A DNA stretch of 45,941 nucleotides, taken from Saprospiraceae bacterium. Lineage in GTDB: Bacteria > Bacteroidota > Bacteroidia > Chitinophagales > Saprospiraceae. Position numbers and translations under genes: made by a program. The notes beneath the pieces are model-generated. The model saw only the letters and a list, made by a program, of their open reading frames with translations. It searched no databases and had not been told where the DNA came from. Positions 339-42,120 of the stretch are shown here, piece after piece; within the stretch, counting starts at the first letter, position 1; every line of letters starts with the position of its first letter. The stretch is taken from positions 1 through 45,941 of the forward strand of contig JALZUU010000374.1 of assembly GCA_023300665.1 (NCBI GenBank), written 5' to 3'.

Positions 339-437
339 TCTGATGATTGGACATTTGCGGGCTTGCGGCTACTCTCCGGCGGTACTGCCGGAGCTGGGAG
401 GCGGAAAATGGAAAAAATGTCTAATCAAATCATCAGA
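339..437 (+). repeat. GC-rich structured intergenic element, copy A (candidate ncRNA or MITE-like repeat)
   Basis: An outer 10-bp helix pairs 339-348 with 428-437. The conserved core spans 352-419, with a perfect 7-bp hairpin at 374-380/387-393. By hand alignment about 53 of 68 core positions match 41941-42007, and three hairpin base pairs are changed compensatorily. Confidence 0.6.
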
Positions 438-2195: not shown

Positions 2196-4733
2196 ATGAA
2201 AAATTTAACTGTTTTCTCAGATCGTAAGACCTTTCTTTTTAAAATGGGCATTGCATGTATGGTCATTTCATTGCTTACTTTTGGATATTCTGATTGGCTT
2301 ATTGATAACAATCACCTCGAAAGAGATAATTCGTCAATCAGCTTCTTTGTTGGCTATGGTTGTTTCTTGGTTTTTATGCTTGGACTACTGAATACTCGAC
2401 TAGAGGAGCAACCCAAATCTATAAAGTTCTCAGATCTAGATTTAAATATCATTTTACTGATCTTGGGAAATATTAGTGCCTATGCGCTCAATCGGATGAT
2501 TGAAGTTTTTCATGAGTCTACTCCTTGGCTCACGGGTTATCTAATGCTACTCAATTTAGCCATGCTTGTGTTTGTATTTCGTAAGAAAAAAACACCGGAT
2601 GCATTTAATCATGTACTAGTAGCGGTGATTGCTTCAGGTGTATTATTTAATATTTATCAGGCGATTTATGTATTTCCATTTTATGGAATTACAGCGATGT
2701 CTTTTTGGTTTTTTGGAATTTCACTTCACACACTTATTCCGATTTGGTATGTTTTTACAACCATTAAGATTTTAAAAAAATATCGAAAAACTTCTGACTT
2801 ATATCAGTATGGAATTATTACTGGTATTTGTATTCCAGCGCTGATGACGATGGGATTTGCTTTTCAATTTTATCAGGTTAACAAATCTTTTCAAGAGGCT
2901 TATGCAGAAAAAGCATCTCCTTTTGTCAATCAAGATTTTCCAGCCTGGGTCAATGCTAGTAAAGATATTTCTAATGGTTGGATGACAGAACGAGTATTAA
3001 AAAGTGGTATTTATTATTCTGTACTAAATGAACATCATTTTAGTTTTGGAATGGGAAGTTTTAATAGGAGTAATATTCAAACAAAGCATGATCCCATGGT
3101 GGTAGTAGGTGCTTTAGTTAGTGGTCGGTTAGAAATCAATCGAAAAGAACGGATTCGGTTATTAAAGACGATGTACAACGAACGCCACGCAGTAGCACCT
3201 CGACTATGGAGAGGGGATGATCTTAATACGACCAATATTGAAACCAATGTCCAGCTCTTTCCCGACTATCGACTAGCATATACCGAAAAAAATATCACGA
3301 TTAAGAATGAAGCAACAAGCCGTTGGTGGGGCCGACAACAGGAAGCGATTTATTCTTTTTATTTACCCGAAGGATCGGTGGTTACTTCTGCTTCATTATG
3401 GATAGAAGGAGAAGAACAAAAAGCAATACTGACTACAAGAGCAAAGGCCGATAGTGCTTATCAAACTATTGTCGGTCGAGAACGAAGAGATCCACTCTTA
3501 TTGCATTGGCAGGAAGGCAATCGAATTTCTGTTCGAGTTTTTCCTTGTACTGCGAAGGAAGCACGTAAATTTAAAATCGGAATCACCAGTCCACTTACTT
3601 ACGAAGAGGATAAATTGACTTACCAAAACATTGATTTTGCTGGACCAGATTGGACCTCAGCAAACGAAATTATTCGAGTCAAGTCAGAAACAAATTTAAC
3701 CGATTTTTCTACTCCAAGCGGATTTTCTGATCAAGGAGATCACTGGGTTTATGATGGTCGTTATCAGTCAGATTGGTCAATGAATTTTACGGCCCCAACT
3801 CTAAATAAAAGTGCATTTTCTTTTGCTGGTCAATCGGTTCGACTACAAGCGTATAAGGAAGAACTAAGAAGTTTTAAACCCAATAAAATTTATCTTGACT
3901 TGCATAATGGTTGGAGTAAATCTACTTTGAAAAAAGTTTTAGCAGCTACCAAAAATCAAGAAGTATATGTTTTTGCAAATACCTTGCAGCAGTTGACGGC
4001 AGATAATGAAAAACGATTGACTAAACATCTTTTGAAAAATAACTATAGTTTGTTTCCTTTTTATGAATTACCTGATGAAGAAGGGGTGCTTGTGGTCAGT
4101 CATAGTGGACGGTTAACTCCTGCTATGGACGATTTAAAAGGCACCCCATTTTATTCGAAATCTGCGAGTCATCTTCCAGTACGTCAATTTCCACCGAGTA
4201 TGTTTCACCTAGGAGAAATTCCGTCTCCTTATTTAAAAACCCTACGAGAATTACGACTACTGGACTACACGCAAGGGACTACGAGTAAGCTACTTAATCA
4301 TTTAAAAAAGCAAACTTTTCCGATGAGTGGAGAAGGTGAAAATTATATCCTTTTACGACCAGCAAAAGTGCAGTTTGTTAAAACTGGAAGCGACCAAAAT
4401 GTATCCGTTAATGCACCGGATCACTTGTGGAGAATGTATGCATATAACAATGTTTTACGGAATATGGGGAAAGATTATTTTAGAAAAGGGCAGTATCAAC
4501 AACGCCATCTGGAAGAAGCGGAAGCTGCTTATGTGGTTACGCCGATTTCAAGTTTGGTGACTTTAGAAACGCAGAAAGATTATGATCGGTTTGATATTAA
4601 AAAATCTAAAAAAACATTGGGTAATGCGACTATTGCTACGGGTGGAGCTGTTCCAGAACCGCACGAATGGATGTTGATGATTCTTGGATTAATGCTCGCC
4701 AGTTGGTTGTTCTTTTTTAAAGGAAAAATTTGA
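2196..4733 (+). CDS. Polytopic membrane protein with a VIT domain and a C-terminal PEP-CTERM sorting signal (XrtN-system VIT domain protein-like)
   Basis: The first ~230 aa carry multiple hydrophobic helices. The central region (IYSFYLPEGSVVTSASLWIEGEE...RDPLLLHW..NRISVRVFP) is VIT-like. The motif VVTPISSLVTLE resembles VIT/vWA proteins. The last 30 aa, GGAVPEPHEWMLMILGLMLASWLFFFKGKI, combine PEP, a TM helix and a basic tail. Confidence 0.75.
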   Translation: MKNLTVFSDRKTFLFKMGIACMVISLLTFGYSDWLIDNNHLERDNSSISFFVGYGCFLVFMLGLLNTRLEEQPKSIKFSDLDLNIILLILGNISAYALNRMIEVFHESTPWLTGYLMLLNLAMLVFVFRKKKTPDAFNHVLVAVIASGVLFNIYQAIYVFPFYGITAMSFWFFGISLHTLIPIWYVFTTIKILKKYRKTSDLYQYGIITGICIPALMTMGFAFQFYQVNKSFQEAYAEKASPFVNQDFPAWVNASKDISNGWMTERVLKSGIYYSVLNEHHFSFGMGSFNRSNIQTKHDPMVVVGALVSGRLEINRKERIRLLKTMYNERHAVAPRLWRGDDLNTTNIETNVQLFPDYRLAYTEKNITIKNEATSRWWGRQQEAIYSFYLPEGSVVTSASLWIEGEEQKAILTTRAKADSAYQTIVGRERRDPLLLHWQEGNRISVRVFPCTAKEARKFKIGITSPLTYEEDKLTYQNIDFAGPDWTSANEIIRVKSETNLTDFSTPSGFSDQGDHWVYDGRYQSDWSMNFTAPTLNKSAFSFAGQSVRLQAYKEELRSFKPNKIYLDLHNGWSKSTLKKVLAATKNQEVYVFANTLQQLTADNEKRLTKHLLKNNYSLFPFYELPDEEGVLVVSHSGRLTPAMDDLKGTPFYSKSASHLPVRQFPPSMFHLGEIPSPYLKTLRELRLLDYTQGTTSKLLNHLKKQTFPMSGEGENYILLRPAKVQFVKTGSDQNVSVNAPDHLWRMYAYNNVLRNMGKDYFRKGQYQQRHLEEAEAAYVVTPISSLVTLETQKDYDRFDIKKSKKTLGNATIATGGAVPEPHEWMLMILGLMLASWLFFFKGKI

Positions 4734-6082
4734 TGCAGAAACAGGCATATACTATTTTAAAAAATCATTTTCCGATCTTGTTTTTGGGAGTGGTGGTTGC
4801 TGGTGTCTTTTTGTTTTTTCAATGGGATAATTTTCCGGGAAGTGCTGCGCTGTATCTAGGGATTTTATTTTTTCCTTATTTGCTTCAGCAAGAAAAAGCA
4901 CCAACAGATCGATTATTAATTCCTGTCGTTTTAGGATTATTGGGATTGTTTTTTTTTAATAGTAGTACGCTTTATTATTTGACGACCGCTTTGGTTATTT
5001 TATGGTTGATTGAAAATTCAATGGGTAAACAAAATCCACTTCCATATTTAATGGTGGTGGTGATTGCTCCCATCTTTCGGTATCTAGTACACATCTGGAG
5101 TTTTCCGATTAGAATAAAAATGAGTAGTCTGGTAGCTTGGTCTTTGCGTCAAATCGGAATGGATGTTACCGCTATTGGTAATTCTATTTTTGTGAATAAA
5201 GTAGTCTATGAAGTAGAGCCTGCTTGTATTGGTATAAAGATGACTGGAACCGCTTTGGTTTGTTGTCTGCTAATTCTTGGTTATTTTAAAAAAGAGCGAG
5301 AATTAAAAATGACTTGGGTCAAAGCAATTGGTTCATTATTGTTTGGTTTTTTACTAACCCTATTTGCAAATTATATTCGGTTATTAGGCTTGGTCGTTTT
5401 CGATATTCCTCCTTCGAATCCATTGCATTCGTTGATGGGAATTATTAGTCTAATCGTCTATGTATTAATTCCATTTTTTTTCTGGTGGAATTGGCGTCAG
5501 CCCAAAACACCTATTATTTCAGATAAAACAATTTTAGATCAAAAAACAGCGATAGTTCCGAAAATCATCGCTAAGCATCGGCTCCTAATTATTGGAATAT
5601 TTATTCTAGGACTAATTTTTACGGGCTGTCAGTTTGGAAATGAAAAAAAACAACCAAATATTACGACACACCCTTGGATGAAACTTAATGGATTTACCGA
5701 AACACCTAAAGATTATGGAGTTTTGGAATTAAAACGTTCTAACCAGCTTATCTATATCAAACCACCTGCTGGTCCATTTCAAGGTGCACACGATCCGCGT
5801 ATTTGCTGGCAGGGTAGTGGGTTTGTTTTTAAAAAAATAAGAAAGGAACAAATCGACGGAATAACCATCTATTTTGCCGAAATAACCCAAGACGAACTTA
5901 CCCTACAAACCGCTTGGTGGTATGATAATGGTCACTCACAAACAACTGAAGAATGGGACTGGCGTTGGCGTTCTCTTTTTTATGGAGAAAGGTATTATTT
6001 GATCAATATCAGCGTACTGGATCAAGAGGGTGAAACACTAGAAAGTTTGATTAGAGAAGTTATGCAAACGACAAGTGATTAG
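4730..6082 (+). CDS. xrtN: Exosortase (XrtN-like) fused to a C-terminal EpsI-like periplasmic domain
   Basis: Polytopic protein carrying the exosortase Cys/Arg/His triad context: EPACIGIKM (Cys166, codon 5225-5227), ANYIRLLG (Arg217) and PLHSLMG (His233). After an additional TM helix the tail contains AHDPRICWQGSGF, resembling the EpsI H.P..C..G.G motif. The start overlaps the upstream stop by 4 bp (ATGA). Confidence 0.75.
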   Translation: MMQKQAYTILKNHFPILFLGVVVAGVFLFFQWDNFPGSAALYLGILFFPYLLQQEKAPTDRLLIPVVLGLLGLFFFNSSTLYYLTTALVILWLIENSMGKQNPLPYLMVVVIAPIFRYLVHIWSFPIRIKMSSLVAWSLRQIGMDVTAIGNSIFVNKVVYEVEPACIGIKMTGTALVCCLLILGYFKKERELKMTWVKAIGSLLFGFLLTLFANYIRLLGLVVFDIPPSNPLHSLMGIISLIVYVLIPFFFWWNWRQPKTPIISDKTILDQKTAIVPKIIAKHRLLIIGIFILGLIFTGCQFGNEKKQPNITTHPWMKLNGFTETPKDYGVLELKRSNQLIYIKPPAGPFQGAHDPRICWQGSGFVFKKIRKEQIDGITIYFAEITQDELTLQTAWWYDNGHSQTTEEWDWRWRSLFYGERYYLINISVLDQEGETLESLIREVMQTTSD

Positions 6083-40921: not shown

Positions 40922-41920
40922 ATGAGTATATTAAACTTCCAGAAGCCCGACAAAATCATATTACAAAAATCTACTGATTTTGAGGGTACTTTCGAATTTA
41001 AACCATTAGAGCCAGGATTTGGACAAACGGTCGGAAATAGTCTCCGTCGTATCCTCCTATCTTCTTTGGAAGGTTTTGCAATCTCCGCTGTTCGTATCGC
41101 TGGTGTTGACCACGAGTATTCTACGATCAAAGGAGTAGTCGAAGATGTAGTTGATATTATCCTAAACCTAAAACAAATCCGATTTAAGCAGTTAATCGCT
41201 GATGAGGATGTTTCTAGCGAAAAAATCTACCTAACCATTAGTGGACAGGATGCACTTAAAGCTGGAAATATTGAAGAGCATACCAACGTATTTAAGATAA
41301 TGAATCCTGAATTGATTGTCTGTAACATGGAACCTTTCGTTAACCTAGAAATGGAATTAACGATCACCAAAGGACGTGGTTACGTTCCTGCTGACGAGAA
41401 TCTTCCTAAGGATGCACCAATTGGTGTTATTCCAATCGATTCGATCTATACGCCAATAAAAAATGTTGCTTACAATATCTCTAACACACGTGTGGGACAG
41501 AGAACGGATTACGAAAAATTAACCATCGACGTTAAGACGGATGGTACAATCCACCCAGAAGAAGCAATCAAAGAAGCTTCTCGTATCATGATTCAACATC
41601 TAATGTTGATTACTGATGAAAACATTACTTTCGATGAAGGTACTGGACGAGAAGATAATATCGTTGATGAGCATATCTTACACATGCGTAAGTTGCTTAA
41701 GACTTCGTTAGAAGATCTTGATCTATCTGTACGTGCATACAACTGTTTGAAAGCAGCGAAGATCAATTCTTTAGCGGAAATGGTTCGTTACGATATGCAT
41801 GAACTATTGAAATTTCGAAACTTCGGTAAGAAATCTTTGGTAGAAATCGAAGAACTATTACAGGAAAAAGGCTTGACCTTCGGAATGGATTTATCCAAAT
41901 ATAAATTAGACGAAGAGTAA
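40922..41920 (+). CDS. rpoA: DNA-directed RNA polymerase subunit alpha
   Basis: Starting at ATG 40922 gives MSILNFQKP....F...PLE.GFG.T.GN.LRR.LLSS..G.A. The C-terminal domain has L.LSVR..NCLK...I....L. The ORF-track start at 40850 lies inside the terminator region. Confidence 0.97.
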   Translation: MSILNFQKPDKIILQKSTDFEGTFEFKPLEPGFGQTVGNSLRRILLSSLEGFAISAVRIAGVDHEYSTIKGVVEDVVDIILNLKQIRFKQLIADEDVSSEKIYLTISGQDALKAGNIEEHTNVFKIMNPELIVCNMEPFVNLEMELTITKGRGYVPADENLPKDAPIGVIPIDSIYTPIKNVAYNISNTRVGQRTDYEKLTIDVKTDGTIHPEEAIKEASRIMIQHLMLITDENITFDEGTGREDNIVDEHILHMRKLLKTSLEDLDLSVRAYNCLKAAKINSLAEMVRYDMHELLKFRNFGKKSLVEIEELLQEKGLTFGMDLSKYKLDEE

Positions 41921-41927
41921 AATCTTT

Positions 41928-42019
41928 ATTGACTACTAAGCATTTGCGGGATTGCGGCTACTTCCCGGTGTATTACCGGGACTAAGAGGTTGGAAATGCA
42001 AAAAATGATTGTAGTCAAT
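41928..42019 (+). repeat. GC-rich structured intergenic element, copy B (candidate ncRNA or MITE-like repeat)
   Basis: An outer 9-bp helix pairs 41928-41936 with 42011-42019 (ATTGACTAC/GTAGTCAAT). The core spans 41941-42007, with a perfect 7-bp hairpin at 41963-41969/41975-41981. It is the paralog of 339-437. Confidence 0.6.
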
Positions 42020-42120
42020 CTTTTTAATAAAATTAAATTAGCGATTACTAAGTACGTTTCGACGGAAAAGTGTCGCGATGATCACGCCGAATAGTCGGCA
42101 TCACTTTTAAAATCTTTATA

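Follow-up and report, generated by a model that had tools for sequence, protein, structure and literature searches.

The closest described systems are the small palindromic repeats of bacterial intergenic DNA. Prokaryotic MITEs are recognized by a length below 500 bp, terminal inverted repeats, direct repeats in the younger copies, AT-rich intergenic targets and stable stem-loop transcripts (PMC10969869). The element described here is likened to them, for example to QMITE2 of Coxiella burnetii, by description and not by sequence. Like QMITE2, it is small and non-coding with terminal inverted repeats, direct repeats of 7–10 bp, AT-rich intergenic targets that are mostly ORF 3′ UTRs, and a stable stem-loop transcript, which in the present case is a prediction (PMC10969869). 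It differs in being about 90 nt rather than 150–200 nt long, in having termini that are not conserved between its two copies, and in its low copy number so far.

ERIC/IRU in Enterobacteria and Correia/NEMIS in Neisseria are likewise imperfect palindromes of a 100–150 nt class with presence or absence among related strains, but they belong to other phyla, and here too the likeness is of description, not sequence. Correia elements duplicate a TA target, as against about 10 bp for the present element. The ERIC and Correia repeats are co-transcribed with flanking genes, and their RNA hairpin alters the fate of the transcript through processing by RNase III or RNase E (PMC10969869). Other small mobile repeats combine a hairpin and a T-run into something resembling an intrinsic terminator. 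The present element has the same overall look, except that its T-run comes from the duplicated target and not from the element. Compared to a canonical terminator, its hairpin is far longer, and the closing stem is AU-rich. Finally, REP/BIME repeats with RAYT are also extragenic palindromes lying just downstream of genes, with a hairpin that is conserved more than its sequence. However, they are 20–40 nt long, make no target-site duplication, occur in hundreds of copies and have a RAYT gene, none of which is seen for the present element.

The window (the whole stretch of 45,941 nt that was analysed) is a portion of a 100-kb metagenomic scaffold, ENA ERZ23499574 scaffold_54. RpoA homologues at about 90% identity carry the label 'MAG: Saprospiraceae bacterium'. 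We read the element as a mobile, imperfectly palindromic, non-coding insertion of the MITE type, about 88–95 nt long, in a narrow uncultured lineage of Saprospiraceae, and give this reading a probability of about 0.68. In this capacity it is a new, lineage-restricted example of the known transcribed palindromic MITE-like repeats (ERIC, Correia or SPRITE-like). An earlier note made from the letters of the window had played down a MITE-like origin. The comparative data show it: copy A has a clean 10-bp duplication and is missing from four lineages, and no more than three of seven related contigs have copy B.

Two copies of a rod-like palindrome

The two copies have unrelated host contexts. Copy A lies in the 3′ UTR of a T9SS-linked OmpA-family gene, and copy B lies in the intercistronic spacer between rpoA and rplQ. 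A distance of 41.6 kb separates the two insertion sites, whose flanks are not homologous. The parts are as follows.

328–330, + strand: TAA stop codon of the OmpA-family gene (681 aa; TPR, PD40 and OmpA domains), downstream of a PorP/SprF gene
330–339, + strand: left target-site duplication of copy A, AGATTTTCTT, an exact 10-mer with a repeat spacing of 105 nt; relatives have a single similar T-rich site
340–434, + strand: element copy A, 95 nt between the direct repeats; covariance-model match of 90.3 bits
340–350, + strand: 5′ arm of the copy A outer stem (helices 1 and 2), with partners at 421–424 and 430–436
374–393, + strand: apical hairpin of copy A (helix 5), CTCCGGC, loop GGTACT, GCCGGAG; six of its seven pairs covary across copies
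435–444, + strand: right target-site duplication of copy A, AGATTTTCTT, providing the T-rich run immediately 3′ of the hairpin
459–517, + strand: older 3′ UTR hairpins kept in all relatives, including a native terminator-like hairpin at 482–517
41918–41920, + strand: TAA stop codon of rpoA
41921–41927, + strand: left flanking repeat of copy B, AATCTTT, probably a decayed target-site duplication (8 of 10 positions if extended)
41929–42018, + strand: element copy B, 90 nt; covariance-model match of 98.8 bits; orthologues in contigs L078 and L058
41929–41936 with 42011–42018, + strand: outer stem of copy B (drawn one pair shorter, 41929–41935 with 42012–42018)
41963–41969 with 41975–41981, + strand: apical hairpin of copy B, TCCCGGT/ACCGGGA
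42017–42023, + strand: right flanking repeat of copy B, AATCTTT, running on into a T-run (TCTTTTT)

When aligned with MAFFT, the core of copy A (352–419) and that of copy B (41941–42007) are identical at 53 of 68 positions, which equals the count reached earlier by hand. The similarity exceeds chance by far and indicates a common origin: its blastn E value is 2e-10, and a 22-nt pattern from the core occurs twice against 0.00 expected from shuffles. The cores are indeed GC-rich as the earlier note had remarked, at 0.59 and 0.48 compared to 0.30–0.34 in the remaining spacer at each site. The starting positions that it gave, 9 nt past the stop codon at 328–330 for copy A and 8 nt past that at 41918–41920 for copy B, hold as well. 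Both copies enter at T-rich sites just 3′ of the stop codon.

Each copy folds as one long rod-like hairpin, with z = −3.6 for copy A and −4.2 for copy B as whole elements against dinucleotide shuffles. Element length varies from about 88 to 97 nt across copies. The covariance-model match and the hairpin of copy A span 340–436, reaching to 436 because the final two stem pairs use the AG of the right-hand repeat. The apical 7-bp helices, 374–380/387–393 and 41963–41969/41975–41981, are both perfect, and the three pairs reported to differ between them are each altered on both sides. The earlier note had also enclosed each core in an outer helix of unrelated sequence. The outer helices exist (340–348/428–436 and 41929–41936/42011–42018), but they are not unrelated. 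The terminal inverted repeats are 8–17 bp in each copy, and those of A and B, while agreeing only there, have 10 of 17 positions and TGA...TCA termini in common. The arms covary, and among the orthologues of copy B the outer helices have undergone step-wise compensatory changes.

We compared the element to the MITE criteria of PMC10969869 and bioRxiv 10.1101/2024.01.18.576219, which ask for a non-coding sequence of roughly 50–800 bp, inverted repeats of about 10 bp or more at the termini that stay the same among copies as the ends a transposase recognizes, several dispersed copies in a genome and an autonomous IS with matching ends. It falls within the size range and is non-coding, and at copy A there is a target-site duplication together with an empty site in relatives. 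Against the MITE reading, the terminal inverted repeats of A and B differ, which is unusual for an end recognized by a transposase. The count of two loci, the lack of a parent IS in the window and the lack of matches in the collections searched weigh against it too. The earlier note had raised non-conserved termini as an argument against a classical MITE, and that objection is real; even so, it fits old, diverged copies with co-evolving arms.

Three other features were considered and set aside. A small ORF (the ATG-GAA/CAA-AAA-ATG frame) is ruled out since neither its length nor its sequence is conserved: by reading, the only internal ATG frame, ATG..AAAAAATG, has 35, 32, 10 and 5 codons across the four copies, running on into unrelated flanks. 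An outward promoter is likewise rejected; the element contains no sigma-70-like site and, by eye, no Bacteroidota TAnnTTTG motif. A 34-nt imperfect repeat (306–339 versus 411–444) has only 62% identity outside the duplicated 10-mer and is A-rich, and so was treated as chance.

A covariance model built from four copies was run over the window with filters off and over about 280 kb of related loci, and neither yielded a third locus. The known loci are two, in about 62 kb of the source scaffold, and the term 'repeat family' rests on these two sites for that reason. The earlier note had recognised no riboswitch or sRNA family in the element, and it does not belong to a known RNA family: Rfam has no match to it at gathering thresholds, and at E <= 10 there is only noise (e.g., miRNA and sRNA models at 10–23 bits). 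Pattern searches of public collections gave chance matches only. The pattern GCGGGNTTGCGGCTAC had 39 matches in IMG/VR, all by chance and with no flanking similarity, and TTTGCGGGNTTGCGGCTAC had eight chance matches in the GTDB representative genomes, among which the source genome is not included. The pattern GCTACTYYCCGN{7,14}CGGRRCTRRGARG had only chance matches in JGI metagenomes and IMG/VR, but it is too strict and would miss the L078 variant; a looser pattern fitting all four copies had one chance match in IMG/VR. Blastn against plasmid and phage collections returned no match. Since only chance matches turned up, the element is, at the sequence conservation that these searches require, restricted to a narrow uncultured lineage. 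The window contains no transposase, parent IS, RAYT or TnpA gene, and we found no such small-repeat family in the literature for Saprospiraceae, a group known almost wholly from metagenomes.

Filled and empty sites in related lineages

The 10-nt direct repeat AGATTTTCTT around copy A, which the earlier note had pointed out, is exact. Only four exact 10-mers in the entire 46-kb window are repeated at a spacing of 85–120 nt. We compared this site to the OmpA-to-DUF1573 spacers of relatives whose DUF1573 protein is 83–91% identical. Spacer length is 235 nt both in the window and in a same-species contig (L064), and 110–170 nt in L067, L068, L069 and L072. Copy A is missing from all four of these related lineages. 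When 340–444 (the 95 nt plus one AGATTTTCTT) is taken out of the window, what remains is colinear with L067, L068 and L069 with a gap of at most 1 nt, and these have a single similar T-rich site (AGATTTTTCTT, AGAATTTCTT and GCATTTTTTT). Copy A is an insertion specific to its lineage, flanked by a clean target-site duplication of 10 bp. The downstream hairpins at 459–517 (AACAACG...CGTTGTT, and the 16-bp terminator-like ATCAGGAGAAGC...GCTTCTCCTGAT) are present in every relative; therefore, copy A went into the 3′ UTR downstream of the stop codon and upstream of the native terminator.

Two observations were made in passing around this locus. Logan contigs L065 and L066, from different sequencing runs, both begin at the base equivalent to window position 382, in the apical loop of copy A. 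The shared start looks like a break in the assembly graph, and it hints weakly at other near-identical copies or strain variants as a possible cause. Also, a VIT-domain gene (845 aa; in the region of window 2196–6082) is absent in L069, L070 and L072, and an exosortase gene is absent in L069 and L070 as well. These differences are gene-content variation beside the copy A locus.

The site of copy B can be followed through more lineages. Copy B is found in three of seven related rpoA–rplQ spacers, those of the window, L078 (ERZ23487468 scaffold_4654) and L058 (ERZ6863860 c_000000221751), and is missing in L050, L054/L055, L075 and L077. The spacer is about 193–201 nt long in the three with the element and 91–113 nt in L050, L054, L055, L075 and L077 without it, and its flanks are highly conserved between filled and empty contigs. 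Copy B lies 102 nt upstream of rplQ. Its flanking repeat is only 7–8 nt, and it is weak evidence alone because AATCTTT is found a third time at 42111. A target-site duplication at copy B is plausible, but it has no independent significance.

Coding divergence from the window is 6% for L078 and 14% for L058. A tree from 2 kb of flanking coding DNA is nearly star-shaped, with the groups (window, L078), (L050, L054), L058 and L075. On such a tree, the patchy presence of copy B calls for several separate losses or for at least two gains. The empty site of L075 (L075:9888–9925, TAAAATTTTCTGACTGGTAATAAAAAAATAAATTAGC) has TGAC and TGGTAAT parts similar to the 5′ and 3′ ends of the L058 copy; judging from these letters, it may be the remnant of an internal deletion. 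In L078, the copy B orthologue (L078:2640–2721) has its apical hairpin cut to 4 bp (CTCC-TTTA-GGAG), and its middle segment is A-like (CTCC..GGAG, CTGGGAGGC). It differs from the copy B of the window by 22% plus 10 gap columns, while the flanking third codon positions differ by only 15%. The A-like middle and the excess divergence together suggest a conversion between family members or a replacement of the copy.

The rplQ side of the spacer has features of its own. An exact 12-nt direct repeat, TAAAATCTTTAT, lies at 41918–41929 and 42108–42119, just after the rpoA stop and just before the rplQ start. The rplQ 5′ leader (window 42036–42120) diverges by 7–13% among lineages differing by 34–36% at third codon positions, a conservation far above background. 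It contains two hairpins (about 42041–42076 and 42079–42103) with four compensatory pairs, the second being followed by CTTTTAAAAT, and Rfam has no match for it. One possibility is a Saprospiraceae L17 leader or attenuator that has not been described so far.

Covariation and the strand probably under constraint

The four distinct copies (A, B, B-L078 and B-L058) were folded together with RNAalifold. The consensus is one rod of 30 pairs in five helices. Double compensatory changes occur in 12 of the 30 pairs, and 97.4% of pair cells hold standard pairs, with the reservation that the structure was derived from the same four sequences and the statistic is not of R-scape grade. Once the 3′ partners are slid by 1–3 columns, the paired cells drop to 28–49%. 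None of 500 column shuffles matches the observed value on four of the five measures. Covariation is seen in helices 1 and 2, which form the outer stem, and in helix 5, the apical hairpin; helices 3 and 4 are nearly invariant.

The sequence of copy B differs by 22–23% between lineages that differ by 15–36% at third codon positions. On the sequence comparisons, then, the element drifts near the neutral rate while its pairing is kept. The earlier note had concluded that this is a selected RNA (or cruciform) structure rather than a decaying duplication. The part of that claim that stands is the conservation of pairing despite drift. The part that does not is the idea of mainly a regulatory RNA or sRNA, given the relatives without the element. 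Template-switch mutation is another possible source of compensatory-looking changes in a quasi-palindrome, and it needs no selection.

The strands are not equivalent. The pair cells comprise 103 Watson–Crick pairs, 11 G·T and no A·C. The consensus fold has −28.95 kcal/mol and 30 pairs on the + strand, and −17.56 kcal/mol and 23 pairs on the − strand. Every single-copy fold is more stable on the + strand, and both strands fold significantly better than shuffles. The G·U over A·C asymmetry and the better fold of the + strand favor a constraint on the sense transcript over a cruciform. As far as sequence can indicate, the constraint points to a + strand RNA hairpin.

Under the MITE-type reading, the element would be mobilised in trans by a transposase making staggered cuts 9–10 bp apart. 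Since both copies lie past a stop codon, upstream of the next transcription signal and in sense orientation, each should be transcribed in the upstream mRNA. That would place copy A in the OmpA-family 3′ UTR and copy B in the rpoA–rplQ intercistronic spacer of the respective messages. In the transcript, each copy would fold into a rod-like hairpin of roughly 90 nt with the U-rich duplicated target immediately 3′ of it, a putative geometry similar to an intrinsic terminator or a 3′-end-protecting hairpin. A U-rich run follows the outer stem in all four copies, with an AU-rich closing stem enclosing about 70 nt. A consensus terminator scan did not call the element; it called only the native hairpins at 482–517 and 42086–42099. 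Insertion of a palindromic element with duplication of a T-rich target automatically yields a hairpin plus U-run on the sense strand, and no prior selection is needed. After insertion, the copies would drift nearly neutrally, and pairing would be kept by G·U-tolerant compensatory changes under an RNA-level constraint, as in ERIC, Correia and SPRITE-type repeats.

Alternative readings and other insertions

A stronger version of mobility is that the element is a structured-RNA module that homes to a T-rich motif just after stop codons (TAA-RATYTTT at both sites). It would then come under RNA-level purifying selection as a portable 3′-end hairpin or attenuator, with sequence exchange or same-site re-insertion among family members, for which the L078 mosaic would be an instance. 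We regard this as a speculative possibility with the odds clearly against it. If it were true, Bacteroidota would have in this element their own equivalent of ERIC or SPRITE, one that targets sites close to stop codons.

Also unlikely is that the host benefit is primary. The element would then be a functional structured RNA, such as a portable terminator, an mRNA-stabilising 3′ hairpin or a 3′-UTR-derived sRNA, with mobility accounting for its spread and the retained copies being domesticated. This would explain the strong covariation over the whole rod, the G·U versus A·C asymmetry favoring sense RNA, the U-run after the hairpin in four of four copies, and the use of two independent sites in the same orientation, 8–9 nt past a stop codon. 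Copy B also persists across lineages differing by 34–36% at third codon positions. However, close relatives are without the element at both sites with their flanks otherwise intact, and because of this it is not a gene-specific riboregulator. Tested as a cis-regulatory RNA, it has no conserved gene association or retention, being absent from four of four lineages at A and four of seven contigs at B. The OmpA-family gene already has a conserved downstream terminator, and the apical hairpin of L078 is reduced to 4 bp. The U-run is not decisive, since the duplicated target and the palindrome supply the terminator-like geometry without selection.

It is improbable that the palindrome is maintained at the level of DNA, either as a cruciform or protein-binding site or as a REP/BIME-like or IS200/IS605-associated hairpin used by a RAYT/TnpA-type enzyme on single-stranded DNA. 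Structure-recognising HUH enzymes tolerate a conserved hairpin shape with an unconserved sequence, which is the pattern seen here, and the significant folding of both strands also speaks for this reading. But REP and IS200/IS605 elements make no target-site duplication, and the REP/RAYT and IS200/IS605 models were rejected for the clean 10-bp duplication at copy A. The element is also about 90 nt compared to 20–40 nt for REPs, the window has no RAYT or TnpA gene, and with 11 G·T against no A·C, one of the DNA strands would carry 11 A·C mismatches.

Least probable by our estimate is an origin without mobility, by one-off templated duplications or patch insertions or as the relic of an old segmental duplication, with the compensatory changes coming from quasi-palindrome template-switch mutation; only two loci are known and copy B divergence is not clock-like (22% between the window and L078 against 15% at third positions, with an A-like L078 middle suggesting conversion), but the precise boundaries with an exact 10-bp duplication, the sites 41.6 kb apart without common flanking homology, and a GC-rich core within AT-rich spacers speak against it.

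The MITE-type reading has consequences beyond this locus. A textbook-looking signature of RNA selection, with perfect helices, compensatory changes and two copies, can come from a small mobile palindrome, and it is the check for an empty site in relatives that decides. With this element, Saprospiraceae gain a small-repeat family that had not been described before. In practice, insertions of this sort interrupt assemblies and may be annotated as sRNAs by mistake. Should the RNA-level constraint be real, a 90-nt hairpin between rpoA and rplQ and another in the 3′ UTR of a T9SS-linked outer-membrane gene make a natural experiment. It would be usable for studying termination and mRNA 3′-end stability in Bacteroidota, where such signals are poorly characterised.

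Two further spacers of these contigs drew attention. An apparent 155 nt of extra spacer between rpsM and rpsK in L054 is a scaffolding artefact, consisting of a 100-nt N-run with duplicated flanks (L054:7646–7745). At L050:1903–1951, and also at L054:1751–1799, the stop codon of the S14 gene (rpsN) is immediately followed by another, different palindromic insertion, about 49 nt long. Its sequence is GTACTTGGACAAA...TTTGTCCATGTACTTGG with an 8-nt direct repeat, GTACTTGG, and it is missing in the window, L058 and L075. It is a second small hairpin insertion beside a stop codon in this lineage.
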